In this document: in pieces, positions 2,342 to 28,808 of the stretch
How positions within the stretch are numbered: position 1 is the stretch's first letter
Layout: every line of letters begins with the position of its first letter
Virus record (IMG/VR): IMGVR_UViG_3300047553_000365
Span: 64,001 to 128,000 of that record
Reading direction: 5' to 3' (one strand)
Source of the DNA: a virus
DNA: 64,000 nucleotides
Made by a program: the position numbers and the translations under genes
The notes under the pieces: generated by a model
Databases searched by the model: none
What the model was told of the DNA's origin: nothing
Seen by the model: only the letters and a program-made list of their open reading frames with translations

Positions 2342-2353
2342 CGGTTTTAATTA
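2342..2353 (-). promoter_or_regulatory. Early promoter motif copy 1 (TAATTAAAACCG-aga-TATCAT-6 nt-ATG)
   Basis: Exact 12-mer; -10-like hexamer ends 6 nt before ATG 2326. Confidence 0.75.
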
Positions 2354-3045
2354 CTCACTATCTTCCTCATCATCTTCATCTTCATCAATATATTCAAGCT
2401 TACCAGTAGTTGATTCTCTCTATAATATTCAGGAATTTCTTCATACTTTAACATTACTGCAAATCTAATAGGATCATCAATTTCGATTTCAATGATTTCT
2501 CCATCCTTAATAATAAAGTGTCCATAATTACTACCGATATCTTCATCGGCATACTTCACTTCAATACTTTCTTCTGGAAACATCTTAGACAGCTTTTCAA
2601 TTACTGGTCTAGGAGTTGCCCACGCAGTATCAAATTTAACATGATCCCCATGATTAACAAAGTCATAAGCATTCCACTTAGTTCCCCAATTATCAATACT
2701 CCACTCATACCAAGAAGTGTAACCAGTTTCCTTCTTGGCCTTAATCATATTGATAAGATTTTCGATTCTCTTATCATCCCAATTCTTAATCGCACCATCC
2801 TTTAAGGAATTGATCTTATTAGAATAAGCAATATTTTCAAAAATTCCACCATCCTTTATCTTAAGTCCATCAAACAATACTTCGACAATATCAACAGCAT
2901 GAAATTCACACTGAACATCTTTAAGGATTTTCGGCATGGGTATGATCTTGCTAAAGTCCACACATTGAGTTCCATCCTCTTCTGAGAGTAATGCATTCAA
3001 CACATTCTCGGAAGCTTTAATTATAGTAGTAATATGGTTAGGCAT
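2347..3045 (-). CDS. DUF1281/YubB ferredoxin-like domain protein; probable 1-nt frameshift near the 3' end
   Basis: MPNHITT start (ATG 3045); WYEWSIDNWGTKWNAY..FDTAWATP motif; an acidic tail is encoded in an alternative frame after ~2411. Confidence 0.7.
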   Translation of the reverse strand: MPNHITTIIKASENVLNALLSEEDGTQCVDFSKIIPMPKILKDVQCEFHAVDIVEVLFDGLKIKDGGIFENIAYSNKINSLKDGAIKNWDDKRIENLINMIKAKKETGYTSWYEWSIDNWGTKWNAYDFVNHGDHVKFDTAWATPRPVIEKLSKMFPEESIEVKYADEDIGSNYGHFIIKDGEIIEIEIDDPIRFAVMLKYEEIPEYYRENQLLVSLNILMKMKMMRKIVSN

Positions 3046-3058
3046 AATTTTAGTTTTC

Positions 3059-4018
3059 TTAGTAAAGTGGAAGGCAGGTAAACCTATCAGTAAAGGTATA
3101 ACAGAACTTACCCCAATTCTTTTTACTGTTGGTAGTATAGTAATAGTCAAAGTTTTCTACAATCTTTTGAACCCCCTCTACACAATCAGCATGAGCAGTA
3201 AACAACATCAGCTTACCACAATTCTTCTCACGAAGTTTCTTAGCAAGACCAATGAAGGTTCCACCCATGCAATTAATATCATCAACAATGAGAGTATCCA
3301 GTCTTCCAAGATCATCAGCTTGCACAAAGAAATCCTTAAGACTTCCATCCTTAACATCACGAACCTTTTCACAACGAATAAGTTTAAATTCACAGTTGGT
3401 AAATTTATTACTAAGGTGTTGAATAATTTTACCTACCCGTTTTCCAGCACCAGCATCAGGTTGAACAATATTAAATCTTTTAACTATCGCATCCTTCTTG
3501 GCAATATTAATATACCCTTGCATCGGTTTGAGACAATCCTCAATAACCTTTTCAACATATTCCAATTCATCCTTAACAACAACATTGTTAAGCAATGCAG
3601 GAACAACTTCACTATGCGGACAAAAGATTTCCACACTAGCAAAGCCACAGCCATTAATCATATCAGTAAAGACTTTACAAGTCAAGGGTTCTCCCATATT
3701 ACAAACCCTATCTTGTCTTGCAGCAGGAAAGTAGGGAAGAATCAAATGAATATTCTTAAAGCCCATTCTACGAGCAGCATCATTAGCAAGAATGATTTGA
3801 AATAGATCAGCAATATTATTATAGCGTTGAGTAATAATCAAATCGCCGGGATACTCCACAATAGTAGTAATTTGCAAATGAGGTTCACCCCCCTTAAATT
3901 CAAAATACTTATAATCCAAAACCTTAGTATCAGAAATAGTAGGAGTAAATTCCTCATCTAAATTAATCTGATAGGGAGTAGTTTTAGTTTCCCAATTTAC
4001 ATGAATATGATTTTTCAT
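3059..4018 (-). CDS. prs: Ribose-phosphate pyrophosphokinase-like protein (probable NARP1 Adps)
   Basis: FKGGEPH, LPYFPAARQDR, VQPDAGAGKR and LIVDDINCMGGTF motifs of the PRPP synthetase fold. Confidence 0.9.
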   Translation of the reverse strand: MKNHIHVNWETKTTPYQINLDEEFTPTISDTKVLDYKYFEFKGGEPHLQITTIVEYPGDLIITQRYNNIADLFQIILANDAARRMGFKNIHLILPYFPAARQDRVCNMGEPLTCKVFTDMINGCGFASVEIFCPHSEVVPALLNNVVVKDELEYVEKVIEDCLKPMQGYINIAKKDAIVKRFNIVQPDAGAGKRVGKIIQHLSNKFTNCEFKLIRCEKVRDVKDGSLKDFFVQADDLGRLDTLIVDDINCMGGTFIGLAKKLREKNCGKLMLFTAHADCVEGVQKIVENFDYYYTTNSKKNWGKFCYTFTDRFTCLPLY

Positions 4019-4020
4019 AA

Positions 4021-4464
4021 TTACTTACATTTTTCTTGTTGAGTCTTACTATTATAAAAGTTGAGTGCTTCTTCGATCAGATAAACACGGGGAGCAACTT
4101 TAATTTGCACACAGTCTTTAGCATTATCAATAACCTTACAAACACCTATCCCACTAATTACCACTATAGCGAGAAGGACTATAGCAAACAAAGGTTCCAA
4201 TCCATCAATAGAATTTTTATTATCTTTCCACATCCAACAAAGAAATTTCTTACCATAGTAGATAGTAAGGGGAACGATAATCAACGAAATAATACCACTG
4301 ATAAGACATTCATAAAATCTCCAAGTCAAAAACTCTTGCAGAACAATAGGAATTTGTTCAAGCATAAAATTAGTGCCAGCTTGAATTGCTTCCACTCCAT
4401 TCTTAATAACGGTTTCCGCCCCTTCAATACCTTTTTCCAATGCTTTTTCTACTGTAGGATTCAT
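4021..4464 (-). CDS. Hypothetical membrane protein
   Basis: 147 aa, two hydrophobic helices. Confidence 0.7.
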   Translation of the reverse strand: MNPTVEKALEKGIEGAETVIKNGVEAIQAGTNFMLEQIPIVLQEFLTWRFYECLISGIISLIIVPLTIYYGKKFLCWMWKDNKNSIDGLEPLFAIVLLAIVVISGIGVCKVIDNAKDCVQIKVAPRVYLIEEALNFYNSKTQQEKCK

Positions 4465-4652
4465 GATTGTGTTTGTTTTATATAGTGAATTATTTCGTTT
4501 TGTTGACTCTTAGAATGAAAATCTTTTGCTCTTTCTCTTATCTCAATAATTGATCTACAGCTTTTATAACGCTTAATAAAGGATATATGAAATACACAGC
4601 CTGTTTTATGGAAGTGTATTGATTCTCCTATTACTGTATATCTTTCGTTCAC
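4461..4652 (-). CDS. Hypothetical protein
   Basis: GTG start 5 nt after the -10 of an early promoter copy; ATGA overlap with the next gene. Confidence 0.65.
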   Translation of the reverse strand: MNERYTVIGESIHFHKTGCVFHISFIKRYKSCRSIIEIRERAKDFHSKSQQNEIIHYIKQTQS

Positions 4653-4666
4653 ACACTACTATAGTG

Positions 4667-4678
4667 CGGTTTTAATTA
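4667..4678 (-). promoter_or_regulatory. Early promoter motif copy 2 (-cac-TATAGT-5 nt-GTG)
   Basis: Exact TAATTAAAACCG. Confidence 0.75.
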
Positions 4679-5029
4679 CTTATTCTTTGGATCATAGATA
4701 ACAACTTCATAGTTAGTATAGCTATCAAATCCCCAAGAATTACGATGAGTTGTCTTTTTAACCTGCAACATTCTATCCAAATACTTAACATCAGTTACAA
4801 TCTGTGTTGGAAAGTTTTCAGAGAGAACAATAATATCGCTCTTAGTTTGAAATCCTTTTGCCGTTTCATACTCAATCTTCGCATCCCCAAAACCAGCAAC
4901 AATAGATAGCATTAAATTAACTCCAAATAATACAAAACTTAAAACAAATCCTAATTCACTTCCTTTACGAAATGCGTAAATTACTACTAGTAAAAGAAGA
5001 CCTGTGCAGACTAAATGTATAATATTCAT
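4676..5029 (-). CDS. Hypothetical membrane protein
   Basis: Start reassigned to ATG 5029 (MNIIHLV) because the longer start lies inside a hairpin; two N-terminal TM-like segments. Confidence 0.65.
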   Translation of the reverse strand: MNIIHLVCTGLLLLVVIYAFRKGSELGFVLSFVLFGVNLMLSIVAGFGDAKIEYETAKGFQTKSDIIVLSENFPTQIVTDVKYLDRMLQVKKTTHRNSWGFDSYTNYEVVIYDPKNK

Positions 5030-5053
5030 ATGTTTATTTTGTTTATAAAATGG

Positions 5054-5087
5054 GGGGTGATGATAAGCAACCACCTATCATCACCCC
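5054..5087 (-). terminator. 12-bp perfect stem-loop downstream of rIIB
   Basis: ggggtgatgata / tatcatcacccc inverted repeat with 10-nt loop, 22 nt after the rIIB stop. Confidence 0.65.
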
Positions 5088-5108
5088 GATTACTAACCTC
5101 CCCCTTCT

Positions 5109-6116
5109 TTACAGATACACAACCTCCATGCCAATCTCATCATCATATTCCCAATCATACCACAAGTCTTGAAGAATATTGAAGGCTACTTCCTTAGTGA
5201 TATAACTAGGAGATACACTATTTTGCACCTGCCTAATAGTCACTTGATCGACACCAGCATCCTTCTTATTCTCAAGATAGGTTTGCACCTTCTTAGTGTA
5301 TGCTTGCAATTCAGATGAATTCTTCTCATCAGTCTTATCAACTTCAAGAACATCTTGTCCCTTCTCATCAACAACAGAAGTTTTGATTTCGTGTGTGAAT
5401 TCTGCAACAACTTCATACTTACAAACACGACACTTTTGGAAATTGCAATCCGTTGGAACGGACACAACATCTTTAGGATTGACCTTAACTAACACAGTCT
5501 TGTTAGCAAAGGTAGAACCATAATCAAAGCTACCACAATGCAGACCAAAGGAACAATGCTTATTACGATCATCATCCACATGACTACGGGAAACTTCAAT
5601 GACTTCTCCCACGCCATTATAGATATGACCATGTTCATCAACCTTACCCTTAATCACCTTAGTTTCCTTATTACCAGAAGCGGAGTAGTAATCATCACGA
5701 ACTCCCTTATAGGCAACAAAGCAACCATCTTCAGTAATTGGCAGTTCCTTATAAGAAAGGAAGTCAGTCAATTCTGCAATAGATTGAGCAGAAGGATTGT
5801 CCTTAAGATTCTTCCAAAAGTTCTCAAAGTGTTCAATTGGAAGACCATCACGAATAATGGACTTAATCTTAGTTGCTAGTGCCTTGGGAAGCTTCTCCCC
5901 TTCATAACTAACATCATCTCCTGCGACCACAAATCCCTTATCGTTAAGCTTACGAGCAGGATTTACAATATCAAGGACAGCCTGTTCTTGCTCATCCTTG
6001 GGAAGTTCAAAGACCTTAACAATACTTGCGTATTTAGGATCAGTCTTTTCAACTCTAACTTTCTCACCACTCTCAAGAATGATGATGATTGCGCTTGCGT
6101 TTGTAATGTATTTCAT
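5109..6116 (-). CDS. rIIB: rIIB-like protector from prophage-induced early lysis
   Basis: ELPITEDGCFVAYKGVR, DDDRNKHCSFGLHCG and VKVNPKDVVSVPTD..K.RVCKYEVV motifs; immediately downstream of rIIA. Confidence 0.88.
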   Translation of the reverse strand: MKYITNASAIIIILESGEKVRVEKTDPKYASIVKVFELPKDEQEQAVLDIVNPARKLNDKGFVVAGDDVSYEGEKLPKALATKIKSIIRDGLPIEHFENFWKNLKDNPSAQSIAELTDFLSYKELPITEDGCFVAYKGVRDDYYSASGNKETKVIKGKVDEHGHIYNGVGEVIEVSRSHVDDDRNKHCSFGLHCGSFDYGSTFANKTVLVKVNPKDVVSVPTDCNFQKCRVCKYEVVAEFTHEIKTSVVDEKGQDVLEVDKTDEKNSSELQAYTKKVQTYLENKKDAGVDQVTIRQVQNSVSPSYITKEVAFNILQDLWYDWEYDDEIGMEVVYL

Positions 6117-6148
6117 AGCTTTGTATCTGTTTCGTGTTTATTGTATCT

Positions 6149-6160
6149 CGGTTTTAATCA
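6149..6160 (-). promoter_or_regulatory. Early promoter motif copy 3 (TGATTAAAACCG-aga-TACAAT), 23-nt leader to rIIB
   Basis: 11/12 match plus -10-like hexamer at the conserved spacing. Confidence 0.7.
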
Positions 6161-6172
6161 ATGTCAAGTAAG

Positions 6173-8155
6173 TTATTTCAGGTTCATAATCTTCCTAATG
6201 TCCTCTCTGGTAAGATTCTTTGAGGCATAAGAATGGCGAATTTGACGCAGAATTCTACCTCTGCAAGAATCTTCCGAAAAAATTCTACGCATAACTTTAT
6301 CAATCTTATCAAGTTTTTGTTGTCTAATATTGCTATCAGTATATTTCTTAATAGCCTTGGCAGTTCTAGGAGAAGCAGCCCCCAGACAAATATCCTTAAT
6401 CCTTGATTCAACTGCTTCAAGTTCTCTTTGTTCTCTGTGTCTTTCTCGGATTTCATCAGCCTTTTTATTATACTCTTTACTTCCATATTCAATCCATCCT
6501 GCTTCCAGAAGAGATTCAATCATGGCTTTACTATTAGTATAATAATAAAGATTATTAAATCCGTAAGTTGCCTTATTAACAATGGTCTTATATTCCAGTT
6601 CATTAAGATCCGTAACTTGGTCATACCAATCATCGGCGGTATAATCAACTTTAACATTAGGATTGTTCTTAAGAAAATTAGCGATTCTCTCATCAGAATG
6701 TTTAATGAGTTCTTCCGCATTCATAGTATTCTTCCAATTACTATTACGGAAGTAGACAAGAAACTTAGTAGTATCCTTGGCAGTAGTTTGAAGCTTGGGA
6801 AGCTTCATCTTCTTAACATCAATAAAGTCGCAGTCAGTGATATCAATATTCTTATCACCAGCAGCAATCTTAGCAGCCATGTTATTAAACTCTACCTCAG
6901 AGATATAAAGGAATCCTTCATAGTCTAAGCCTTGAAGATTCTTATAGTAACTAATAAGTCTCTTCTTCCAAGAGTTGGTATTCTTAATATCAGGAATGAT
7001 ATGAATAGGCTTTCTCTTACCCACAAGGTTCTTCATTCCATTATAACCATATTGATTAAGTTCCACCATCTTTACGATGTGTCGAGAAGTATAATGAGTA
7101 AGAGGAAAGAGTTGCGTATAGTTATGGGAGAAATATTCCAAAGTGGAAGTCTTACCAAAGGGAACTTCCTGTGTAAGAACTGCACCAAGCTTAGGACAAG
7201 TAATAAGTTCCTTCTCCTGCGCCCTAACTTCATCAATAAACTTAGTAATCTCTACATAAACCTTAGTATTAAGAGCAGTAGATTCAATACGCTCACGGCT
7301 AATGGGAAGAGTAAGCTTACCAATAGGAACATCAATCACAATAATGTGTTCCGATTCCACAGAGAAGGAATAATTTTCGTAACCATAGATCACTCCCCCC
7401 ATTCTAAGGTAAGGATTGTTATAGGTCTGCCTATCGGGAATATCACTAGCCTTGTAAGCTTCAATAGTAAAGTCTCCAATGGTCTTGGTATGCAATGGAA
7501 TTGCAGGAACCGTAACAGTATTGTAAACGATTTCCTTAAACTCGATAGGACTAGTAAAGGTTCTAACGAACTTCTTGGTAGTGTTAATGAAGTTAGCAAT
7601 ATCGCTATTCTTAACATCCACGGAAACTTCAATACCTTGCTCCGTAGTGGGTTCTTCTGAAACCTTATAGATTTCTCCAATGGGAATACCACTACCACTA
7701 GCTCCCAAGGTGCAGACATAAGTTGCCTTAACACCGTTATGGTGACTCACAACATAGTAAGTATCACTATAACAGAATGCAGCCTTACCACCGATACCAA
7801 ACCCACCAATAGAGTTATTCTCTGCGGACTTAGTAGATTCAAAGTAAACAGCAAAGATATTACGAACATCATGTTCATTCAATCCCATTGCATAGTCGCG
7901 CACTCCCCAAACATAACTACCATCACGACTTTCAATAAAGACATTAATGGGTTGAGTAATTCTATACTTAATATGCTCATCCCGTGCATTAGAAATATAC
8001 TCACGAACAACTGCAAGAACCTTATCAGAATAAATCTTATCCCGCATAAAGTATTGAGCCATTTCCATGCCCTTCATGGACATACCCATAATACTCTTAG
8101 AACTCTGCAAGTCCTCAGATACAAATGTTTTCTTAGTGATGATTCCTGTTTTCAT
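6173..8155 (-). CDS. rIIA: rIIA-like protein (N-terminal GHKL ATPase)
   Basis: IYSDKVLAVVREYISNARD, VRDYAMGL, STKSAENNSIGGFGIGGK; precedes rIIB. Confidence 0.9.
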   Translation of the reverse strand: MKTGIITKKTFVSEDLQSSKSIMGMSMKGMEMAQYFMRDKIYSDKVLAVVREYISNARDEHIKYRITQPINVFIESRDGSYVWGVRDYAMGLNEHDVRNIFAVYFESTKSAENNSIGGFGIGGKAAFCYSDTYYVVSHHNGVKATYVCTLGASGSGIPIGEIYKVSEEPTTEQGIEVSVDVKNSDIANFINTTKKFVRTFTSPIEFKEIVYNTVTVPAIPLHTKTIGDFTIEAYKASDIPDRQTYNNPYLRMGGVIYGYENYSFSVESEHIIVIDVPIGKLTLPISRERIESTALNTKVYVEITKFIDEVRAQEKELITCPKLGAVLTQEVPFGKTSTLEYFSHNYTQLFPLTHYTSRHIVKMVELNQYGYNGMKNLVGKRKPIHIIPDIKNTNSWKKRLISYYKNLQGLDYEGFLYISEVEFNNMAAKIAAGDKNIDITDCDFIDVKKMKLPKLQTTAKDTTKFLVYFRNSNWKNTMNAEELIKHSDERIANFLKNNPNVKVDYTADDWYDQVTDLNELEYKTIVNKATYGFNNLYYYTNSKAMIESLLEAGWIEYGSKEYNKKADEIRERHREQRELEAVESRIKDICLGAASPRTAKAIKKYTDSNIRQQKLDKIDKVMRRIFSEDSCRGRILRQIRHSYASKNLTREDIRKIMNLK

Positions 8156-8170
8156 GCGCTCAGTGTAGGT

Positions 8171-8182
8171 CGGTTTTAATTA
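8171..8182 (-). promoter_or_regulatory. Early promoter motif copy 4 (-acc-TACACT-6 nt-ATG of rIIA)
   Basis: Exact 12-mer; its TAA is the stop codon of the upstream gene. Confidence 0.75.
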
Positions 8183-9109
8183 ATTATCTTCCACCCATCG
8201 TTGATTGATCTCAACTGCGGCATCCGTAATAAGCTTTGCAGTAATTTCTTGCATATTTGTATTAGAATCTTGGCTACCCTCCCCAGAAGGTTTAATCCAT
8301 ACTTTACGAGAACGACCCATATAGTAATTTAGAACAGTCATAACAATGTAGCACTTCAAGAAGTGATTATGCTTATCTTTATCTTTCGCTTCTTTAAGAA
8401 TAACTTGTTGGGCATGTTTGTATCCATATCTAATATCCATACCTCTAAAAATATCCCAATAGTCAGGCATTTTGTAACCTGTTTGTTTGAGGGAAATACT
8501 CAAACTGGTAAGTCCTGCCAACAGCATAAATCTTGACATAGAATCATCCTCACTAATTTTGATTATTGCTTGTCTAACATTCTCAAAATCAGATTCAAAA
8601 TCCTTATAGTATGCTTTTAAGGTAGTATAGTAGTCTTCATCCCCATTTTCCTTTTTAGGATTATAGGAAAGTCCTACACTTTCCAATAAGGAATCAAGAA
8701 CATTTTTCTTAATGATGATATGTGTAAATCTTAATTCGTCTTTACCATACTTTCCATTTTTAACATACAACCTGCCTTCATGATCTGCTTCCAAAACTTT
8801 ATAGATATCAAGATCATCCACTTTAACAGGAACATCATGGTATTTATTTTCCCCTTGCTCCATCTCCACAATATTTTCTTTAAGAAAGTCAACAATGTAT
8901 TGTGATTCAGGGCTACATTTTTCAACCCCACCATAATCATCATATTCACCCTCAAAGAAAAGAGGGAATGGAGTATAGTAAGTATCACAATAACAATGAT
9001 CCCCGTCTACTCCCTTATAAGGACTTTCTACCAAAAATAAGCAATACACTTTATCTCCTGCCATAACAGGAAGATTAGTAATTGCACAAGTTCCATTCCA
9101 GCATCCCAT
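8180..9109 (-). CDS. Hypothetical phage protein (MGCWNGTCAITNLP N-terminus)
   Basis: 309 aa ORF, in-line. Confidence 0.75.
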   Translation of the reverse strand: MGCWNGTCAITNLPVMAGDKVYCLFLVESPYKGVDGDHCYCDTYYTPFPLFFEGEYDDYGGVEKCSPESQYIVDFLKENIVEMEQGENKYHDVPVKVDDLDIYKVLEADHEGRLYVKNGKYGKDELRFTHIIIKKNVLDSLLESVGLSYNPKKENGDEDYYTTLKAYYKDFESDFENVRQAIIKISEDDSMSRFMLLAGLTSLSISLKQTGYKMPDYWDIFRGMDIRYGYKHAQQVILKEAKDKDKHNHFLKCYIVMTVLNYYMGRSRKVWIKPSGEGSQDSNTNMQEITAKLITDAAVEINQRWVEDN

Positions 9110-9121
9110 ATTATTAGTTTT

Positions 9122-9613
9122 CTATTGGTTAATCCATTCGGGTTTGTTTTGTTTCCAGTTATGAAGATGTTTCTTATCGTGGATATAGTAAAGACGATAA
9201 CAATGCACAGGATCAGATTCATCAAAGTCAGGCATAGTGCGACAAATAGAATCTTGACTAATAGCAATGGCAAACTTGGTAAGACCCTGTGTAGGGAATG
9301 TAAGCTTGTTCATATTGAGAACACACCAATCTAAAACATCTTGGCTTTTGTGACGCTTACCATATCGTGCAGTATATTCATGAAAGGTAGCATAAGAATG
9401 CCTAATAAGCCAGAGCATATTTTCTTTAGACTCACGCACCCAAATAGAACTAGGATGATTCTGGTGAGACTTTTTATAAGGCGCATCAATACCTTGTAAT
9501 TGAAATGCGGTGCATAAGAGTTGTGTATGCTCTAAGCCCATCTTACTAATATGACGATCAACTTGCCATTGTGCAGATTGCACAGGATCATTAGATAGGC
9601 AGAAAATGTTCAT
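9122..9613 (-). CDS. Pyrimidine dimer DNA glycosylase / endonuclease V-like
   Basis: MNIF.L..DP..SAQ...D.H..KM.LE..QLLCTA, HQNHPSSIWVRES and YRLYY motifs. Confidence 0.75.
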   Translation of the reverse strand: MNIFCLSNDPVQSAQWQVDRHISKMGLEHTQLLCTAFQLQGIDAPYKKSHQNHPSSIWVRESKENMLWLIRHSYATFHEYTARYGKRHKSQDVLDWCVLNMNKLTFPTQGLTKFAIAISQDSICRTMPDFDESDPVHCYRLYYIHDKKHLHNWKQNKPEWINQ

Positions 9614-9628
9614 GGCCCTATCATACCC

Positions 9629-9640
9629 CGGTTTTAATTA
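9629..9640 (-). promoter_or_regulatory. Early promoter motif copy 5 (-ggg-TATGAT-6 nt-ATG)
   Basis: Exact 12-mer. Confidence 0.75.
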
Positions 9641-9654
9641 AACCTTTTTAATGG

Positions 9655-9688
9655 GAGAAACTATAATGTTACTGGCATCATAGTTCTC
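9655..9688 (-). terminator. Imperfect stem-loop, possible terminator upstream of promoter copy 5
   Basis: gagaactatgatg / cattatagtttctc pairing (one bulge, one G-U) in the intergenic gap. Confidence 0.45.
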
Positions 9689-9706
9689 GATTCAATCACT
9701 TCAAGT

Positions 9707-9937
9707 TTAGTAAGAAGTGATTCGGCTGTTGCGAATTTCGCAAGTAAGATCACGGGTATCAACATTAACCCATTCTCCACCGTGTTGATTCTTACGAATA
9801 AGAACCTTTGATTCTCCACCCAAAAGATGGAAAGAACCGTCAGGATTGCGAACCATGCTTACTTGATAAACCTTGGGGTTTTTTCTTTGGTCACGGTTAC
9901 GCAGCCATTGCTTGTTTTTTCTGTTTGTGTTTCTCAT
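9707..9937 (-). CDS. Small basic hypothetical protein
   Basis: 76 aa ORF. Confidence 0.65.
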   Translation of the reverse strand: MRNTNRKNKQWLRNRDQRKNPKVYQVSMVRNPDGSFHLLGGESKVLIRKNQHGGEWVNVDTRDLTCEIRNSRITSY

Positions 9938-9941
9938 ATGT

Positions 9942-10184
9942 TTATTTTTGTTTTTTTATATAACCTTCTGCTATTAATAGATCATCTACAGAATCTAGAA
10001 AACTTTCTACATTAATATCTATTAATAAGTTTTCCAATAAAGAATCAAGTCTGTCTAATTCTTTTTCGTATTTTTTCTTATCAACAGGATTGTCAATAGA
10101 TTCTATTTCTATAGCTATCTGGTTAAGTCTTTCTTTTACTGATTCAATTTGACTATCAATACGGTTCCAATCTTCTTGTCCCAT
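9942..10184 (-). CDS. Acidic coiled-coil hypothetical protein
   Basis: 80 aa ORF. Confidence 0.65.
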   Translation of the reverse strand: MGQEDWNRIDSQIESVKERLNQIAIEIESIDNPVDKKKYEKELDRLDSLLENLLIDINVESFLDSVDDLLIAEGYIKKQK

Positions 10185-10187
10185 GTA

Positions 10188-10850
10188 TTAATTAGTCCGC
10201 TCATCGTGATGGTCAATCATTTCTGTGTCTTTTGTTGACATAATATCTTGAATATCATCGAACGACCATATCTTACCATAATCTATTCCAACGTCAAGTC
10301 CTTTTCCTAAAGGAAATTCAGGTCTACGTTGAGGATCATTTAAATGACTATGGCCAGATAAGTTCCAAGCCCCCCTATGACTCTTATGAAAGATTCGATA
10401 AGGAAAGTGATTAAGAATTACCATCTGCTTACCAACGTGTATTTCCAGATGATTACCCATAAATTCCACATTGGCAATTCTTAAGGGATAAACTTCAATA
10501 TCATCCCTACCAAATTGTTTTAATACTTCAGTCTTATAAATACGATACATATTAGATTCATGGTTTCCCCACAAATATCTAATAGTTCTACATTTAATAG
10601 ACTTCAGCCATGACATACAGAGTTCGTCCGTAGCATTTAAAAATCCGTCTCCAAGAAAGTAAAGAATACCATCTTCAGGAACAGTATTATTAATCATGAC
10701 CAACATCTTCTCTGCGGAATCCTGTGCGTTTAAATGTCCACGGGTTTCCCAGATTGGAGTAGGCCAATTAGGATTATGATAGGCATGAAAGTCACTACTA
10801 AAGTATAACTTACTCTTTTCTTCCCACTTGTGTTTTATTATTCGATACAT
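10188..10850 (-). CDS. Calcineurin-like metallophosphoesterase
   Basis: SSDFHAYH, YFLGD, WGNHE, LNHFPY and GHSH motifs. Confidence 0.88.
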   Translation of the reverse strand: MYRIIKHKWEEKSKLYFSSDFHAYHNPNWPTPIWETRGHLNAQDSAEKMLVMINNTVPEDGILYFLGDGFLNATDELCMSWLKSIKCRTIRYLWGNHESNMYRIYKTEVLKQFGRDDIEVYPLRIANVEFMGNHLEIHVGKQMVILNHFPYRIFHKSHRGAWNLSGHSHLNDPQRRPEFPLGKGLDVGIDYGKIWSFDDIQDIMSTKDTEMIDHHDERTN

Positions 10851-11082
10851 GTTCTTTTAAGTATTCTACGATATCATCTGTTCCTGTCAGTCTACCAGTA
10901 ATCTCTCCATTGTCAAATGTAATTAGAACGGGGGTAGACTTAACATTTCGCTTTTTAAATTCCTTGGGGTTGTCCTTGGAGTTAAAGTATTCCACTTCAA
11001 GGTTGTTCTGTTCCAGCTTTCTTTTTAATACAAATCCTAAGCCCTCCCAAATATTTAAAAATAATATATAATCATTTTTCAT
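10810..11082 (-). CDS. Thioredoxin/glutaredoxin-fold protein lacking CxxC
   Basis: NVKSTPVLITFDNGEITGRLTG matches the thioredoxin C-terminal half; the protein contains no cysteine. Confidence 0.55.
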   Translation of the reverse strand: MKNDYILFLNIWEGLGFVLKRKLEQNNLEVEYFNSKDNPKEFKKRNVKSTPVLITFDNGEITGRLTGTDDIVEYLKEHVSNNKTQVGRKE

Positions 11083-11089
11083 ATATTAA

Positions 11090-11356
11090 TCAACATCTGG
11101 GGGTGCATCTCTTACAAGGACAGGAGATGAAGTGAATACAGGATTGTTTAGTTACCTTATCTACACCAGTCCCATTACAACGCTCACATTGTTTATGTAA
11201 ACAATCATTATCTTCATTACTATTTGTCCAAAGAGGTTTGAAATCTTCGAAAGGATCTATCTTATTATCACTTCTCACAAATTCTGAAAAAGTGATTTCT
11301 CCCCTTCCTATAACTTCACTGAGTTTAGGTAATTTATCTTTATCTATATCATTCAT
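11090..11356 (-). CDS. Hypothetical protein with Cys-rich (Zn-binding?) C-terminus
   Basis: CLHKQCERCNGTG...CIHFISCPCKRC. Confidence 0.65.
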   Translation of the reverse strand: MNDIDKDKLPKLSEVIGRGEITFSEFVRSDNKIDPFEDFKPLWTNSNEDNDCLHKQCERCNGTGVDKVTKQSCIHFISCPCKRCTPRC

Positions 11357-12435: not shown

Positions 12436-12450
12436 GTAAGCATAGTAAGT

Positions 12451-12462
12451 CGGTTTTAATTA
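12451..12462 (-). promoter_or_regulatory. Early promoter motif copy 6 (-act-TACTAT-6 nt-ATG of RNA ligase)
   Basis: Exact 12-mer. Confidence 0.75.
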
Positions 12463-12463
12463 C

Positions 12464-12784: not shown

Positions 12785-12786
12785 AA

Positions 12787-17752: not shown

Positions 17753-17753
17753 A

Positions 17754-18158: not shown

Positions 18159-18173
18159 GCGCCTATCATATCC

Positions 18174-18185
18174 CGGTTTTAATTA
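18174..18185 (-). promoter_or_regulatory. Early promoter motif copy 8 (-gga-TATGAT-6 nt-ATG)
   Basis: Exact 12-mer. Confidence 0.75.
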
Positions 18186-18189
18186 CTAC

Positions 18190-18525: not shown

Positions 18526-18526
18526 A

Positions 18527-18994: not shown

Positions 18995-19548
18995 GATATT
19001 AGCTCTAACTTATTAATCTCTTTCATAACATCATCTTCGGAAAGATGATATAAATTATAAATTGGTATATTTCTACTTTTTGCAATTCTCATGGCTTGCC
19101 CTGTTCCTCCTACATCGGTTCCATCATGTGTCCAACATATAACAAAACTACTATCGGGTTCATTATTCACATAACCACAAATTTGTCTATAGTTTCTAGC
19201 ATGAAAATAACCATCTGGAACATTAGGTTTTCCCTCCTTATTTATAATATATGATCCTCTAGGATGGAACTTTACTACAGATTTAAAAGCCTCTTCATCA
19301 TAATCAGATAAAATCCTATATGTATGTTGAGGATGAGAATCTTTAAATTTTTTGTTAAAATTATTCCAAGGCAACCATATTTGTGCATCACAACCCTTAA
19401 CACCTTTAGCAAATGCTTGATCTGCGCCCTCGGCATTACCTGATCTTAAAGTATATCCCATACATTCAAGTTTACCTGCAATACTAGTCATAGTCTTAGA
19501 AATATCATCAGGAATAGTCCTAGATCCTATACCAGCATAATACTTCAT
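18991..19548 (-). CDS. SLOG/DprA-like nucleotide-binding protein
   Basis: YYAGIGSR, LRSGNAEGADQAF, HARNYRQICG and FVICWT.DG...GGTGQAMRIA motifs. Confidence 0.78.
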   Translation of the reverse strand: MKYYAGIGSRTIPDDISKTMTSIAGKLECMGYTLRSGNAEGADQAFAKGVKGCDAQIWLPWNNFNKKFKDSHPQHTYRILSDYDEEAFKSVVKFHPRGSYIINKEGKPNVPDGYFHARNYRQICGYVNNEPDSSFVICWTHDGTDVGGTGQAMRIAKSRNIPIYNLYHLSEDDVMKEINKLELIS

Positions 19549-19549
19549 A

Positions 19550-20188
19550 TTACTTCTTAGTTAAAGGGGTGGCACTACTAAGTTGATTATTTTCAATCAA
19601 AAACACTTCACCATTCTTAGGACTTTTATACGATTCAAATTCTTCAACAGTCCATCCAAAAAGATACATGAGATACACCTTGTTGAATTCACCATGAGAA
19701 ACCACAATGTTATTACTAGATGCATTATTAAGAAGATGTTGGTGAAAGATCATAGCTCTCTGATAACAGTCAGCAAAACTTTCTCCCCCATCAGGTCTAT
19801 TATAGAAGTTGAAATCATGTTCAGTATGAAGTTTATTAAAGGTTAGTTCTCTAAGCTTTCCCCATTCCCTTTCTCTAAGAATAGGCATAGTAAAATGCTT
19901 ACCAAAAGAATACATGGGAATACCACTTAGTTCATACTTAATAACACTAGCAGTTTGTTTTGCCCTCCTAAATGTAGAGGTAAACATATTAAACATTTGC
20001 GGTGTATGAGTAGGATACTCTACTTGATTATCAAATCTATCAAGTAACTGAATAATCTTCTTTGCTGCTAAAGATGCGTGTCCCGTTCCTTTAGCAGTAA
20101 GTTGAATATCTGCATCATGTTTAGTGAAGTAAACAGAATGATCTGCATTACCTTCTGATTCTCCATGTCTGACTAGCCAAATTCTCAT
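19550..20188 (-). CDS. Histidine phosphatase (phosphoglycerate mutase family)
   Basis: LVRHGESEGN, STFRRAKQT, LREREWG, GGESFAD and VVSHG motifs. Confidence 0.9.
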   Translation of the reverse strand: MRIWLVRHGESEGNADHSVYFTKHDADIQLTAKGTGHASLAAKKIIQLLDRFDNQVEYPTHTPQMFNMFTSTFRRAKQTASVIKYELSGIPMYSFGKHFTMPILREREWGKLRELTFNKLHTEHDFNFYNRPDGGESFADCYQRAMIFHQHLLNNASSNNIVVSHGEFNKVYLMYLFGWTVEEFESYKSPKNGEVFLIENNQLSSATPLTKK

Positions 20189-20317: not shown

Positions 20318-21046
20318 TCAGTTTCCTTTAAGATTAATAGGTTTTTCTCTGTCAGTAATTCTAAAGACAGGATGCGGAGTAAAGCCACCTTGATAAGTTC
20401 CCCAAGGGGGAGTCATATTATCACCAGTAACATCACAATACTTTGCAATATTAGGATACCACTTCTTGTTACTGATTAAACCAACCTTGTCCTTATGAAC
20501 AAAAATATGATAACCACCACGGGTTTCCACAACATCACAATAACCTTCGCAAAGGTCAATACACTCCATAATAGTCTTTTCATCCTTGGAGTCAAGATCA
20601 AAAGGAATATATTTTTTATTGCTACTGCAAGACCTTTGAATCTCACTAAGAATTTCCGCATGAGGATTTGCATTCTTGGAAGAACATTCCAATAGAGTAG
20701 CTAAAACGCTAATACCCTTAAGAGTAGCCTTCCATAGATCCCTAGGATTAGGAGTAACATATAATGCAAGTGCCTCTTGAGGAACAGGCTTATCTTGCTC
20801 TCCCTTAACTCTATATGCACCAAGCTTACATTCAAGCTGTGCTACCTTACCATAAAAGTATTCCTTATCGGTGGTGAACCTCTTAAGTTGTCCTTTGTCA
20901 CTTTTAATCCAAGGCATATCGTGACAATACTTCTTACGACAAAAAAGACAACCATAGTATTTCTCATTTACTTCCAGATCAGGAAGCCAATCAATAAATT
21001 CTCGGAAAAGTTTATCATCAGTAATAATTTGATAAGTTTCGCTCAT
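20318..21046 (-). CDS. Putative AEP-superfamily (primase/polymerase-like) protein
   Basis: IPFDLDSK (hhDxD) and VETRGGYHIF (TxxGxH) motifs; directly behind an early promoter. Confidence 0.55.
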   Translation of the reverse strand: MSETYQIITDDKLFREFIDWLPDLEVNEKYYGCLFCRKKYCHDMPWIKSDKGQLKRFTTDKEYFYGKVAQLECKLGAYRVKGEQDKPVPQEALALYVTPNPRDLWKATLKGISVLATLLECSSKNANPHAEILSEIQRSCSSNKKYIPFDLDSKDEKTIMECIDLCEGYCDVVETRGGYHIFVHKDKVGLISNKKWYPNIAKYCDVTGDNMTPPWGTYQGGFTPHPVFRITDREKPINLKGN

Positions 21047-21061
21047 GACCCCACTATACCT

Positions 21062-21073
21062 CGGTTTTAATTA
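21062..21073 (-). promoter_or_regulatory. Early promoter motif copy 9 (-agg-TATAGT-6 nt-ATG)
   Basis: Exact 12-mer. Confidence 0.75.
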
Positions 21074-23067: not shown

Positions 23068-24425
23068 TAGCTTTCTTCCTCCATGTCAGATTCTCCATTG
23101 TCTCTAGATGCACTTTCCTTAATAACGAAATCAGGATTCTTAAACTTAAATGCTGGTCTAGTAGGCTTGCTTTCAATTCTTACAACAATACCTTCATTAA
23201 CAACAGCATTCTTACTAAGGAAACATTGCTTCTTGAAATAGGTTTCCTTAAGCTTAGTAATGAAGTTTGTTCTCCAATCATCATCCACAGGAATATTAAA
23301 CAGATCCTTGGCCAGTCCGTAGTAATGAATAGGAACAGTTTCCAATCCTCTATCCACACAGAACTCAACCATAGACGGAAGAGAGAATTCGTGCTTTTCC
23401 GTAGAGCTAATATTTCTCACGACACGATAAACATAGAATCCAAGTTCACCCTTAGTTAAACCATAGTCATATCCCTTTTGAACACACTTCTCAGGAGATA
23501 CCCATCCAACAATTTCTCCATAGATAAGATAATCGTCTGGAATGCTGTCCTTAATTCTTTCGGAAATAACAGACCACACACCATTATCATTACCAGTTAA
23601 AATTCTGCTTCTAGATGCATACACATGACGATATTCTGTATTAGGAATACCTACCAAAAATCTGAATGGATTAAATCTCTTCTTACATTCCAGTTCTGCA
23701 AAGATAGCAGATGTGCCATGAAGCTTTTCAGACACAGTAATAATATCATCGGGACTAATAAGAAACATATTCTTACCCAACTGTTCAGTCTTGTAATGAA
23801 AGGCAAATTGATTACCCACAATGCTCTTTTCCGCAGAAGGCTTACGGATAGCACTCTCCACAACATTGTATGCAGAGTTAAGAACCTTTCTAACGGGTCT
23901 TGGAAATATGCCAACGATCTTACCAAAGACTTTACGACACTTATTAGGTGTGCTTTGTGTTTGATTGCTAACTTTAACCTCTGGTCTTACATACTTAGTA
24001 ACCAGTAGATCACTACCCACAGTATCAAATTCTTTACCAAGAGCAAACACAGATTCATTCACCTTGTAATATTCTGCAAGTTTGGAAACCTTAAACACAA
24101 ATCCCTGACTAGGAACTTCACGAAGTCTAATAGCCTTTACACGGCATTGCTTACCAAAGAATCCTTTGGTCTTACCATCGCTATTAAGTTCTGGTCTGTC
24201 CAGAAGATTAGCCCAAGAAAGAAACTTTTTATCAATGCAACATTCCACAGGAAAATACACCAATAGTTCCCCTTCCTGATAAGTGCCTTTTTGAATGATA
24301 ATTTCATTACCGAAAATATCAATCAGAGAAAGCTTATCAGCATTAGGATGATCCTTAATTGTTGGACACTTTACAACTGTGGCCAAATAGTTAGGATCTG
24401 CTGTTTCGGAAATAGTAAGTTTCAT
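23067..24425 (-). CDS. RNA ligase, Rnl2/DRB0094-like with N-terminal OB (tRNA-binding-like) domain
   Basis: HPNADKL..VYFPVE..VKAIRLREVPSQG OB-like N-terminus; VSEKLHGTS, IYGEIVG, EGIVVR and FKFKNPDF motifs. Confidence 0.85.
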   Translation of the reverse strand: MKLTISETADPNYLATVVKCPTIKDHPNADKLSLIDIFGNEIIIQKGTYQEGELLVYFPVECCIDKKFLSWANLLDRPELNSDGKTKGFFGKQCRVKAIRLREVPSQGFVFKVSKLAEYYKVNESVFALGKEFDTVGSDLLVTKYVRPEVKVSNQTQSTPNKCRKVFGKIVGIFPRPVRKVLNSAYNVVESAIRKPSAEKSIVGNQFAFHYKTEQLGKNMFLISPDDIITVSEKLHGTSAIFAELECKKRFNPFRFLVGIPNTEYRHVYASRSRILTGNDNGVWSVISERIKDSIPDDYLIYGEIVGWVSPEKCVQKGYDYGLTKGELGFYVYRVVRNISSTEKHEFSLPSMVEFCVDRGLETVPIHYYGLAKDLFNIPVDDDWRTNFITKLKETYFKKQCFLSKNAVVNEGIVVRIESKPTRPAFKFKNPDFVIKESASRDNGESDMEEES

Positions 24426-24937
24426 AGCGGAATACGAATTGAAGATTGGTTTTTTGTATTTGTGGGATTAAGTTTATAGACGATGAATTCAACATTGAAT
24501 AGATGTTCCATGTCTTCAAGAATAGCTTCCACTACTCTCCAAGAACCTCCTGCACGATCACAGCCCATCTTATAGGGAACACCAATCTTGATAGGAAAGT
24601 AACCATCATACAGATTATCGAAAGCTTCGCAAGCTTTAAAAATAGAATTATATAGGTGGTCATATGAACAGTTCCTATTAAGAGGATTGCCATCGCATCC
24701 AACACCAACTTGCCCATAGAGATTAACCACTAGCCTATTATCTGGCAAGGTGGCAATGGTAGAACTTCCAAGCCTATCCTCTGGTGCAGCATCCCATGCA
24801 TTATCTGCCTGTTCCACTTGGGGCCATTTAACCCTAAGTGCCAATGCAACACCACTACCCATAACTTTATGAGCATTGGCACAATGCATAGCAACATCCC
24901 AATCCCCTTCCAGAAGATCACCATCAATAGTTTTCAT
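24422..24937 (-). CDS. Macro domain (ADP-ribose binding/processing) protein
   Basis: IDGDLL, HCANAHKVMGSGVALAL, VVNLYGQ and VPYKMGCDRAGGSW motifs (T4 Tk.4-like). Confidence 0.88.
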   Translation of the reverse strand: MKTIDGDLLEGDWDVAMHCANAHKVMGSGVALALRVKWPQVEQADNAWDAAPEDRLGSSTIATLPDNRLVVNLYGQVGVGCDGNPLNRNCSYDHLYNSIFKACEAFDNLYDGYFPIKIGVPYKMGCDRAGGSWRVVEAILEDMEHLFNVEFIVYKLNPTNTKNQSSIRIPL

Positions 24938-24952
24938 GCGCCTAGTATGAGT

Positions 24953-24964
24953 CGGTTTTAATTA
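24953..24964 (-). promoter_or_regulatory. Early promoter motif copy 10 (-act-CATACT-6 nt-ATG of macrodomain)
   Basis: Exact 12-mer; its TAA is the upstream stop codon. Confidence 0.75.
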
Positions 24965-25366
24965 CACTCTTTGGTCGGTTTTTATGAATGATTCTACATC
25001 GAAAGAATTTACTACATTATATTCCAGACCGGGATAATGCATTTCCATATATAAATCTAGTTCATCTCTATTTTGAGCAGCCACAAAATATGTCTTTTGT
25101 TCACTATCTTCCACAAACAATTCATAGATGGTATGAACAATGGTGTCGTAGTAAATGATTGAAAATAATTTACCCCAAGCTATTCTCCCAATATACTCCC
25201 ATGAAAACAAAAACACAGAAGCTACCATCCATAGATTTCTATGTTCAATATTAAAGACTCCTCCAAAATGAAGGACTAGGTAAAAGCTTATAATAGTCCA
25301 AAACCATGCGGCAAAATCAAAATGTGATTTATATTTGTAATATATTTTTGGATTTCCTTCAGGCAT
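24962..25366 (-). CDS. Hypothetical membrane protein
   Basis: Two hydrophobic helices. Confidence 0.65.
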   Translation of the reverse strand: MPEGNPKIYYKYKSHFDFAAWFWTIISFYLVLHFGGVFNIEHRNLWMVASVFLFSWEYIGRIAWGKLFSIIYYDTIVHTIYELFVEDSEQKTYFVAAQNRDELDLYMEMHYPGLEYNVVNSFDVESFIKTDQRV

Positions 25367-25890: not shown

Positions 25891-26047
25891 AATCTTCTAC
25901 ATCGTAGTTGTAATCTATCTCCCAGCAGTTTATACCACAACAAGGGCATCCTGTCAACCATGCATCCCCTCCTAATTCATCAAGAGAGTAGAATCTTTGT
26001 TCTGCATGACACCATCCATCATATTCGTTTTCTTCTTCGATATTCAT
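25877..26047 (-). CDS. Small acidic Cys-containing protein (56 aa), not in ORF track
   Basis: Manual translation MNIEEENEYDGWCHAEQRFYSLDELGGDAWLTGCPCCGINCWEIDYNYDVEDYESQ; ATGA overlap with the YopX stop. Confidence 0.6.
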   Translation of the reverse strand: MNIEEENEYDGWCHAEQRFYSLDELGGDAWLTGCPCCGINCWEIDYNYDVEDYESQ

Positions 26048-26442
26048 TTTACTGTGGTTTTAATTAAATTATTATTTTCATTAACATTTCCTATTATGGT
26101 TAATTTATCGAAAGAGTCTTGTGATGTTACAACTCTACCAACAACTTCTGGCTCCCCGTTCCCCATAGCTCTATATATGTAGGGAGTATTAAATCCACCA
26201 TTGTAGTAATCCATATGATAGAGAAATTTTACACCACTTTCAGAACTACTCAATCCCGTAATAGGATTAGCTTCTAAAATATCTCCCTCATATATATCGT
26301 TACCTTTGGAATCTTTAAATCCAGTATATTGTTCAACCTTACACCAATATAGAGGAAATGAAAAGTCTTTAAACATTTTAAGTTCTCCATATTGGTATTT
26401 TTTCTGTTGGTCATACCATGCTCTAAATTTTAGTTCTCTCAT
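26044..26442 (-). CDS. YopX family protein (third paralog)
   Basis: LKFRAWY, EQYTGFKDSKGNDIYEGDIL and IIGNVNEN motifs. Confidence 0.88.
   Translation of the reverse strand: MRELKFRAWYDQQKKYQYGELKMFKDFSFPLYWCKVEQYTGFKDSKGNDIYEGDILEANPITGLSSSESGVKFLYHMDYYNGGFNTPYIYRAMGNGEPEVVGRVVTSQDSFDKLTIIGNVNENNNLIKTTVK
26055..26066 (-). promoter_or_regulatory. Degenerate early promoter copy 11 (TAATTAAAACCA-cag-TAAAAT)
   Basis: 11/12 match at the YopX 3' end; the -10-like hexamer overlaps the next ATG. Confidence 0.4.
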
Positions 26443-27284: not shown

Positions 27285-27706
27285 TGTGATAAAATTTTTC
27301 TTATAATCGGTCTTGCTCTAGCATTTGCAGAATGCACATAAAACTTAGGAATAGGGACTTCCGCAAGCTTACACGCACTCACTAAATATTGAGCGCAATG
27401 CGCTCCTGTCTTAATATCAAAATTCTCCCAATTTTCCATGAGAAATTGGGCTGCTAACTTCTTACTAGTTCTATTTTCGGCTAATTCATATGCCACATCC
27501 CACAGATCATTATCAAAACTGACAACATCAGGAATACCCACGGTATCAATGTAGTTTACAAACTCATCGTAGGATCTTACAATGTCCCACTTCCATACAG
27601 GTATACCAGAATAAACAATCAGATTAGCATCCTCATCCCACAGGTGAGCATGTTCTGGTTGTCTATCATCATCCAAGAATAGAAATCTCTTTTCCTTTAT
27701 ATCCAT
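27281..27706 (-). CDS. Cyclic-phosphate-processing receiver-like domain protein
   Basis: LFLDDDRQP, VRSYDEF, VSFDNDL, KTG.HCA.YLV and VHSAN motifs. Confidence 0.75.
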   Translation of the reverse strand: MDIKEKRFLFLDDDRQPEHAHLWDEDANLIVYSGIPVWKWDIVRSYDEFVNYIDTVGIPDVVSFDNDLWDVAYELAENRTSKKLAAQFLMENWENFDIKTGAHCAQYLVSACKLAEVPIPKFYVHSANARARPIIRKILSQ

Positions 27707-27933
27707 GTTAAATCTATTTCTAATTGTAAGTCTTCCGAACCTTCTGGTTTAGTGACTATTCCCTCTGAAAGAAAATAGTCCAGATAATCAAGCAGTTTCT
27801 TATTAAGAAACCATTTTGAATCTCTCTTCATTTTAGGCATTGCCATTAATACTACTAATGCTCCAATTTCTTCTAATGTTAAGCTATCGGAAGCAATGTC
27901 TAACGGCAGGGTTATTTCTTCTTTATTATCCAT
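27697..27933 (-). CDS. Hypothetical protein
   Basis: Start reassigned to MDNKEE, coupled to the upstream stop. Confidence 0.6.
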   Translation of the reverse strand: MDNKEEITLPLDIASDSLTLEEIGALVVLMAMPKMKRDSKWFLNKKLLDYLDYFLSEGIVTKPEGSEDLQLEIDLTWI

Positions 27934-28780
27934 TTTTAAATATACTTTTGAGAATTGGCATCCATCCACCCTTCTTTTTGAATACAGTTCGGGCAATCGC
28001 TTCTCTTGCTACAAGCATACCAAGAGAAATCGCATAGTCAACTACTTTTTTATTACCCTTGAATTTCTTCTGAGTGGCAATAATTTTAGGAACATCATAC
28101 TTACCTCTATAGACATAGCCTGTGGAAGTAAGGTCTGCATGAAAAAGTCCTGTGACACCAAATCTATTTTTAATTACTGCAAATATTCTCTTATTAGGGT
28201 CTTCCTCATCATCTCTCAAAATCTCCATTTGAACATCTAGAAAGAATGATAACGATGGACCACCCCTAATTTCACCCTTACCGTTTTCTTGTAGAATAAA
28301 GATAAGAATACATCCATTTTGTTTGACAGCAGCAATTAGTGTTCTAATACAGTAATCGACTATTTTACTCTTAGTGATCTTCTTATCCTTACAGGTCAAT
28401 GTTTGGAATGAGTCGATAACGATCAGGTCGTTTATATAGGTGAGTTGAGTCAATTCGTCAATGTCGGTAACATTACCAATGTTGACATTATTTGCACCTA
28501 GCCTCTTGCCTGTAATAGATAGCTGTGCCTTACTCTCTTCACCAGATGCGTATTTAACACGCTTACCTAGTCGAGTGAGTCTTTCGCATATATCTAGGCA
28601 AAACGAAGTTTTACCTGCGCCAGCATTGGCGTGTATAATACAAGTAGATCCGGGCAATAGACCACCACCAAAAATGGCATCCAAGTTACTATCCCCCGTG
28701 CTTATTCTGTTTGAAAGGTAATCAGGTGCATTTACACAGGATACCCTCTCAAACCCGTCATTTTGCAGATTCAAGTTCAT
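27926..28780 (-). CDS. RadA/Sms-like RecA-fold ATPase (core only)
   Basis: TGDSNLDAIFGGGL, ANAGAGKTS (Walker A), YASGEES, IVIDSFQT and KNRFG motifs; no N-terminal Zn finger or Lon-like C-domain. Confidence 0.8.
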   Translation of the reverse strand: MNLNLQNDGFERVSCVNAPDYLSNRISTGDSNLDAIFGGGLLPGSTCIIHANAGAGKTSFCLDICERLTRLGKRVKYASGEESKAQLSITGKRLGANNVNIGNVTDIDELTQLTYINDLIVIDSFQTLTCKDKKITKSKIVDYCIRTLIAAVKQNGCILIFILQENGKGEIRGGPSLSFFLDVQMEILRDDEEDPNKRIFAVIKNRFGVTGLFHADLTSTGYVYRGKYDVPKIIATQKKFKGNKKVVDYAISLGMLVAREAIARTVFKKKGGWMPILKSIFKNG

Positions 28781-28796
28781 CGCGCATATCATAGGT

Positions 28797-28808
28797 CGGT
28801 TTTAATTA
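28797..28808 (-). promoter_or_regulatory. Early promoter motif copy 12 (-acc-TATGAT-7 nt-ATG)
   Basis: Exact 12-mer. Confidence 0.75.

Follow-up and report, generated by a model that had tools for sequence, protein, structure and literature searches.

What reads a 12-bp sequence that a phage places, time after time, just upstream of its start codons? The question is raised by a 64,000-nucleotide (nt) stretch of virus DNA (the window), which comprises bases 64001–128000 of the IMG/VR record IMGVR_UViG_3300047553_000365 and carries the element TAATTAAAACCG (the box) in 12 copies. The record (G000; 138,655 base pairs (bp), approximately 67% complete, G+C content (GC) 0.36) comes from a lake-derived, uncultured phage that is a distant T4-type myovirus. 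Judging from the layout of the DNA, the box class very probably consists of promoters that give leaderless messages, and its reader may be encoded by the phage itself.

We rescanned the window allowing at most one mismatch and recovered the 12 copies of the original prediction (10 exact and two with one mismatch). All of them lie within 2342–28808 on the minus strand; shuffled versions of the window gave an expectation of 0.54 copies and a maximum of 3. Since the genes between these positions are minus-strand genes, the motif lies on the coding strand. After each box comes a TAnnnT or CAnnnT hexamer, separated from it by 3 nt in 11 copies and by 2 nt in one (17145). The start codon comes next, as ATG at 6 nt in eight copies, ATG at 7 nt in one (28797) and GTG at 5 nt in one (4667), in line with the predicted distances of 2–3 nt and 5–7 nt. 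Copies 6149 and 17145 have leaders of 23–24 nt, and copy 26055 has no clear start. In 5 of the 12 copies, the upstream open reading frame (ORF) stops in one of the two TAA triplets of the box. The ORFs that follow the boxes are real genes, among them RNA ligase 1 at 12435 and rIIA at 8155, whose N-terminal conservation in a relative begins with the first Met. The copies, with ORF lengths in amino acids (aa), are as follows.

2324–2353, minus strand: box promoter 1, with the box at 2342–2353, TATCAT at 2333–2338, a 6-nt spacer and ATG 2326 of a 69-aa ORF.
4650–4678, minus strand: box promoter 2, with the box at 4667–4678, TATAGT, a 5-nt spacer and GTG 4652 of a 63-aa ORF; the upstream ORF ends in a TAA of the box.
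6114–6167, minus strand: hybrid promoter 3, with TTGACA at 6162–6167, a T, the box TGATTAAAACCG at 6149–6160, TACAAT, a 23-nt leader and ATG 6116 of the 335-aa ORF after rIIA.
8153–8182, minus strand: box promoter 4, with TACACT, the spacer gagcgc and ATG 8155 of a 660-aa ORF, the rIIA homologue; a TAA of the box closes the upstream ORF.
9611–9640, minus strand: box promoter 5, with TATGAT, the spacer agggcc and ATG 9613 (163 aa).
12433–12462, minus strand: box promoter 6, with TACTAT, the spacer gcttac and ATG 12435 of a T4 RNA ligase 1 family gene (360 aa).
17110–17156, minus strand: box promoter 7, with a 2-nt gap, TATAAT and a 24-nt leader that opens with ATCGAAGAAAAA, in frame with ATG 17112 (316 aa).
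18156–18185, minus strand: box promoter 8, with TATGAT, the spacer aggcgc and ATG 18158 (134 aa).
21044–21073, minus strand: box promoter 9, with TATAGT, the spacer ggggtc and ATG 21046 (242 aa).
24935–24964, minus strand: box promoter 10, with CATACT, the spacer aggcgc and ATG 24937 (171 aa); the upstream ORF ends in a TAA of the box.
26046–26066, minus strand: box variant 11, with TAATTAAAACCA, TAAAAT and then gaatATCGAAGAAGAAAAC; no ATG stands at the expected place, and its function is uncertain.
28778–28808, minus strand: box promoter 12, which opens the leftward array, with TATGAT, a 7-nt spacer and ATG 28780 (284 aa).

The box was found throughout the record and in related genomes. The whole record contains 32 copies, of which 31 lie on the minus strand at 34.4–92.8 kilobases (kb) and one on the plus strand in the plus-strand transfer RNA (tRNA) region. 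In G001, a relative whose genome is complete (206,590 bp; 80% terminase identity), there are 67 copies, 59 in a minus-strand block and eight in a plus-strand tRNA block. In the record and in G001 alike, the orientation of each copy is that of the genes around it. The general layout is box-N3-TAnAnT-N6-ATG; the G001 consensus is atTAATTAAAACCGAAnTAtAATannnntATG, and the box of another relative (G002; terminase 69% identical) is TAATTAAAACCA. The composite motif was present in about 18 IMG/VR contigs, one of which is a second complete genome (G005; 211,724 bp, with terminal repeats). Conversely, a scan of approximately 185,000 cellular species genomes returned 30 hits, roughly the number expected by chance; all were single in their genomes, none lay on phage-like DNA, and no cellular genome had more than one copy.

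A sister phage (G004; complete, 202,205 bp) uses a different box in the same place. Its layout is tGATnAAACACTA-N3-TAnnnT-N6-ATG in 49–73 copies, and we checked that the AAACACTA box of sister phages stands in the same layout. G004 conserves 143 of the 305 G001 proteins and is similar to G001 in GC and gene content. At nine orthologous genes (32–66% amino-acid identity), G001 has the TAATTAAAACCG-type box (box A) and G004 the tGATnAAACACTA-type box (box B) at the same position. The two boxes have the upstream half TRATTAAA in common and differ in the downstream half, which is ACCG in box A and CACTA, one base longer, in G004. Such a concerted change is the pattern that a co-evolving trans-acting factor would produce.

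The sequences after the box have the properties of a -10 element. The hexamer keeps T-12, A-11 and T-7 and is variable between them (TATAAT, TACAAT, TATACT, TAGAAT, TATGAT and others), and nAnnnT follows the box in 26 of 27 copies in G000 and 59 of 60 in G001. Conservation of T-12, A-11 and T-7 is the signature of sigma70 region 2. The gap between hexamer and ATG has its mode at precisely 6 nt, the value seen for 17 of 26 copies (G000) and 41 of 59 (G001) but after only 1.8–2.5% of all TAnnnT hexamers in the same genomes (binomial p of about 1e-23 and 1e-51, respectively); the genome-wide scan that had been proposed as a check confirmed positional enrichment at starts. With the hexamer at -12 to -7 and a gap of 6 nt, the A of the ATG falls on +1. 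In addition, the base before the ATG was C or T in 21/21 copies in G000, 43/43 in G001 and 41/41 in G004 (105/105 in total), compared with about 63% at other genes. Bacterial RNA polymerase prefers a pyrimidine at -1 and a purine at +1. We infer the start site from three observations, namely how the ATG distances are distributed, that -1 is a pyrimidine and that the hexamer is of the sigma70 type, and all three favour the original placement of +1 at the start codon.

A -35 element is missing from this class. TTGACA at 16–18 bp was lacking in most box copies, the consensus upstream of the box was blank, and the box promoters are without both a -35 and a TGn motif. Under E. coli rules, a promoter without these two elements has the -10 alone left. 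The earlier statement that no consistent -35 is evident agrees with the window, in which the one exception is copy 6149, preceded by TTGACA at 6162–6167. Such hybrids, one in G000 and five to six in G001, have the form TTGACA-T-box-N3-TATAAT with a 16-nt spacer, as in the host-type class described below, and mostly stand before tRNAs or genes with leaders. Because the hybrids put TTGACA one base upstream of the box, the box corresponds to the spacer DNA (-27 to -16) of a sigma70-type promoter; hexamer geometry and hybrid spacing thus agree with the predicted -35-less class that has its conserved element at this position. Since the hybrids drive untranslated RNAs (tRNAs), they also argue against the box being a translation signal.

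A GC-rich spacer between hexamer and start codon had been taken as a discriminator under stringent control. The enrichment is real in G000 (0.59 versus 0.36 for the genome) and G002 (0.64) and is absent from G001 (0.38) and G004 (0.41). Since the latter two have the same architecture without it, the GC-rich spacer is a lineage-specific trait and not part of the mechanism, and the stringent-control interpretation has no support.

The lack of Shine-Dalgarno sequences noted originally was borne out, with no enrichment at gene starts; at the other genes, G is depleted at -15 to -5 and A peaks at -3 and -6. Box-driven genes show what is expected of leaderless genes in sequence, namely a -10 element 5–8 nt before the start, an AUG start and no Shine-Dalgarno sequence. 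Terminators were not enriched in window positions 1–20000 (nine found versus 9.0 expected), and none lay beside a box. The sole strong intrinsic terminator in the first 20 kb of the window (5054–5087, minus strand; a 15-bp stem with seven GC pairs) directly follows the 335-aa ORF after rIIA. At three box promoters without an ATG at +1 (window 17137–17112, window 26046–26022 and the G000 60695 region), the sequence ATCGAA(G/A)GAAAA opens at this predicted +1, and two of the three have the ATC in the reading frame of the ORF downstream; the motif may represent either leaderless initiation at a non-AUG codon or a leader common to these promoters.

Two further promoter classes were found in these genomes. 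The host-type class, TTGAC[AT]-N13/14-TGn-TAnnnT, occurred in 12, 24, 12 and 21 copies in the four genomes G000, G001, G002 and G004, against 0.3–1.0 expected. These promoters have 16–17-nt spacing, lie mostly 4–9 nt from an ATG and carry no box.

G000 2713, 9229, 16438, 23622, 29382, 29718 and others, plus strand: host-type promoters, each a full-consensus match.

The sequences of this class suggest that the primary sigma of the host is canonical and that the early genes are nearly leaderless. The 'early' timing originally assigned to the box class remained unproven, as the full host-consensus class fits host-only immediate-early promoters better; the box class may be middle-like in timing. 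The second class, TAAATA-N5-ATG, was found 19 times in G000, 47 times in G001 and 54 times in G004, versus 1–5 in a reversed control, and belongs to late genes, including those in window 30000–64000. The T4 late consensus TATAAATA was considered as the late motif and rejected, since it was not enriched and TAAATA-N5-ATG was found instead. A homologue of the late sigma gp55 is present (G001 177897–178343). The T4 late box occupies -13 to -6. With a T4-type late box at these positions and a gap of 5 nt, +1 would again fall on the A of the ATG; thus, the box and late classes, although unrelated and each correctly spaced in its own way, lead to the same leaderless conclusion. The cultured T4-like Pelagibacter phage HTVC008M (NC_020484.1) shows a weaker, modest enrichment of TAAATA-N5-ATG (14 versus 4 in the control), often as TAAATAGTAnTATG, and may share part of the leaderless late layout.

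How would the box promoters be read? In the model we favour, they would be transcribed by the host RNA polymerase, whose primary sigma would recognise TAnAnT at -12 to -7, while a phage-encoded specificity factor would bind the 12-bp box at -27 to -16 and stand in for the -35 and TGn contacts. The working mode would be like T4 sigma appropriation with another box, at another position and without MotA or AsiA. Transcription would begin at the A of the ATG, with its pyrimidine at -1 and purine at +1, and the mRNAs would therefore be leaderless and translated without a Shine-Dalgarno sequence. We infer the existence and phage origin of the factor, that is, a phage-private reader, because a genome may contain up to 60 identical boxes, cellular hits are only single, and the box is swapped in G004 at nine orthologues. 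Since the promoter and leaderless reading is well supported and the reader is the best explanation, if unproven, we consider the whole model (host polymerase, phage-encoded reader and leaderless starts) to have somewhat better than even chances of being right.

Several results weigh against this model. The search for a phage sigma or activator gene, proposed with the original prediction, identified no candidate factor. Profiles of the MotA C-terminal domain (PF09158) and AsiA (PF09010) matched nothing in G000, G001 and G002 at E<=1, the MotA N-terminal domain not being part of the search; the Sigma70_r2 profile matched only gp55, and the Sigma70_r4 profile gave only sub-threshold matches. Conserved small ORFs could not be assigned to a family, and two ESM Atlas look-ups of such ORFs produced no lead. 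In Deinococcus, a -10 alone suffices beside an ORF (PMC12340547), and by analogy a suitable host may need no factor. Moreover, because several box copies have leaders of 23–60 nt or drive RNAs, leaderless output is not universal.

Other searches gave equally little. PF00940 (T7-type RNA polymerase) had no match in G000, G001, G004 and G005, nor did the control genomes give any, and PHROGs and Pfam searches with about 60 ORFs returned nothing relevant to box reading. The largest G001 ORFs are structural, NrdA/B or without known function. Two proteins were considered individually. A 356-aa protein (window 29019–30089, minus strand) combines an N-terminal helix-turn-helix (HTH; HTH_23/HTH_28, with a weak Sigma70_r4 match) with a metallophosphoesterase; it is kept at 54–73% in four genomes and always heads the box-promoter array. 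We rejected it as a clear candidate, as its recognition helix shows no variation in step with the box. G001 also encodes a second gp55-like paralogue (24657–25001, plus strand; 114 aa) in the tRNA region, which is truncated, without the acidic C-terminal tail, and was not found in G000, G002 or G004; its absence from the complete G004 genome led us to reject it as a general reader.

The alternative that survives best, which we nevertheless consider unlikely, is that the host holoenzyme alone reads these promoters, the box being a spacer element that boosts a -10-only promoter and the different boxes reflecting different hosts. The sigma70-type hexamer and the TTGACA hybrids indicate that the host sigma is used, -10-only promoters beside ORFs do work in Deinococcus (PMC12340547), T4 early promoters also have extra conserved positions (PMC2988021), and profile searches did not find a factor gene. 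However, no element read by a host sigma comes near the conservation of a 12-bp sequence found unchanged up to 60 times, and the composite motif never occurs more than once in a cellular genome. The same genomes also have a separate, enriched full -35/TGn/-10 class that lacks the box, and the box underwent a concerted change in a sister phage whose GC and gene content are similar.

It is less likely still that a divergent phage sigma-like subunit reads both box and hexamer and replaces the host sigma. T4-like phages already swap sigma for their late genes, and both a gp55 homologue and, in the tRNA region of G001, the truncated 114-aa paralogue are present. Yet the paralogue is missing from G004, which keeps the same architecture, the hexamer pattern and the 16-nt TTGACA spacing match the host-type class, and the profile results for Sigma70_r2 (gp55 only) and Sigma70_r4 (sub-threshold) do not favour such a subunit.

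That the box is no promoter at all, and acts instead in RNA, enhancing translation or marking a processing site, or in DNA, as a site of recombination or cassette exchange, is very improbable: it does often hold the upstream gene's stop codon (5 of the 12 window copies), it does form -10-less clusters at record 31.88–31.98 kb and 34.43–34.56 kb, and T4-type phages are known to recombine at repeated promoters (PMC2839356), but copies precede tRNA genes with correctly spaced TTGACA, the A-11/T-7 signature, fixed 6-nt distance and pyrimidine at -1 are promoter and start-site features, and there is neither Shine-Dalgarno-like complementarity nor a stem-loop beside the box. A role in recombination could coexist with promoter function.

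The box clusters without a usable -10 (G000 31880–31984 and 34435–34558, minus strand) lie at the distal end of the leftward array, beside a UvrD-like helicase gene. In one, three AAATTAAAACCA copies stand 46 nt apart; in the other, a stretch of 125 nt contains four boxes in direct orientation and a fifth that is inverted. The clusters may be sites of regulation or of factor binding. Between G000 (34–93 kb) and G001 (48–110 kb), the order of orthologues in the box-promoter block is largely collinear, with many non-shared small ORFs and a few translocations (for example, G000 45950 and 46468 to G001 80957 and 93680). This pattern is compatible with cassette exchange at repeated promoters.

The gene content around the boxes is that of a T4-type phage. 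The left half of the window contains the rIIA homologue, T4-type RNA ligases, a DNA ligase, NAMPT and a PRPP-synthetase-like gene, and the right half the tail sheath, baseplate wedge and large terminase. The best matches of terminase and sheath to cultured or known T4-like phages reach only 30–43% identity, and megablast with 20 kb found no nucleotide-level relatives among cultured phages. Among the approximately 25 phage tRNAs is one with the anticodon CTA (amber suppressor; G000 2757–2830, G001 23941–24013), and TAG is the rarest stop codon, ending 13 of the 178 G000 ORFs of at least 80 aa.

The nearest functional analogue of the box promoter is the T4 middle promoter, which combines a sigma70 -10 with a MotA box 12 +/- 1 bp upstream, occurs about 60 times and has MotA, together with AsiA, as its reader (PMC2988021, PMC6755090); the MotA box consensus is (a/t)(a/t)(a/t)TGCTTtA, and the host promoter classes are listed in the same source (PMC2988021). 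Both systems belong to T4-type phages, place a phage-specific upstream box in lieu of the -35 of a host sigma70 promoter, repeat the promoter some 60 times per genome where pre-replicative genes lie, and include some promoters that mix host-type and phage-type elements. However, every defining feature except the -10 fails here. The box is TAATTAAAACCG rather than the MotA consensus; as predicted, its geometry is also different, since it lies 3 bp from the -10 (24/26 copies in G000 and 59/59 in G001) rather than 12 bp and spans -27 to -16, whereas the MotA box is centred at -30. The box is invariant (12/12), whereas MotA tolerates changes, T4 middle transcripts have leaders with Shine-Dalgarno sites, and motA and asiA were not detected here.

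The leaderless aspect has other counterparts. The middle and late genes of the Thermus phage phiYS40 are reportedly leaderless with the -10 next to the ORF, a finding said to come from Sevostyanova et al. in 2007. Leaderless promoters with a -10 beside the ORF have been described for Deinococcus-Thermus genes (PMC12340547) and for lambda PRM-cI (bioRxiv 10.1101/2023.09.02.556006). These share with the box promoters a TAnnnT a few bases before the start, the lack of a Shine-Dalgarno sequence and a dispensable -35. In contrast, the present system has an invariant 12-bp box attached to the -10 and is found in T4-like phages, and its predicted leaderless layout covers three promoter classes and most promoter-proximal genes. 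The PeSL cassettes of RB49 and phi1 are complete sigma70 promoters joined to a terminator stem-loop (PMC2839356); as here, many copies of one strong promoter stand among small variable ORFs in hyperplastic regions as possible shuffling substrates, but most copies here lack a -35, and none has a stem-loop. As for T4 late promoters (gp55; PMC2988020), the same genomes likewise use TAAATA boxes abutting starts and have a gp55 homologue, whereas the box class is defined by TAnAnT 6 nt from the ATG and the 12-mer, not by TATAAATA. Giant phages with mapped start sites, phiKZ and AR9, have no leaderless transcripts (PMC8244752, PMC5312081). We found no publication that describes this box or a leaderless T4-like phage, and the 12-mer appeared in no relevant context.

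T4 itself relies on Shine-Dalgarno sites. Taking the promoter classes together, it is a real possibility, which we rate at rather less than even, that a freshwater clade of T4-like phages of about 200 kb carries out nearly all of its expression leaderlessly, from host-type, box and late promoters, and has a new spacer-binding factor (-27 to -16, beside the host sigma) unlike MotA/AsiA that has co-evolved with 50–70 promoters per genome (TAATTAAAACCG, TAATTAAAACCA and tGATnAAACACTA). For annotation, the gain is that start codons become assignable from promoter position, and those of about 25–50 genes per genome can be fixed in this way. If the model is true, the compact unit of promoter and start codon, about 30 bp long, would be usable in synthetic biology. 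The phages would have a second, MotA/AsiA-independent way to redirect the host RNA polymerase by means of a private box, with natural specificity variants available for swaps, and they would be a natural system that expresses dozens of genes without a 5' leader, in a family whose model member, T4, uses Shine-Dalgarno sites.

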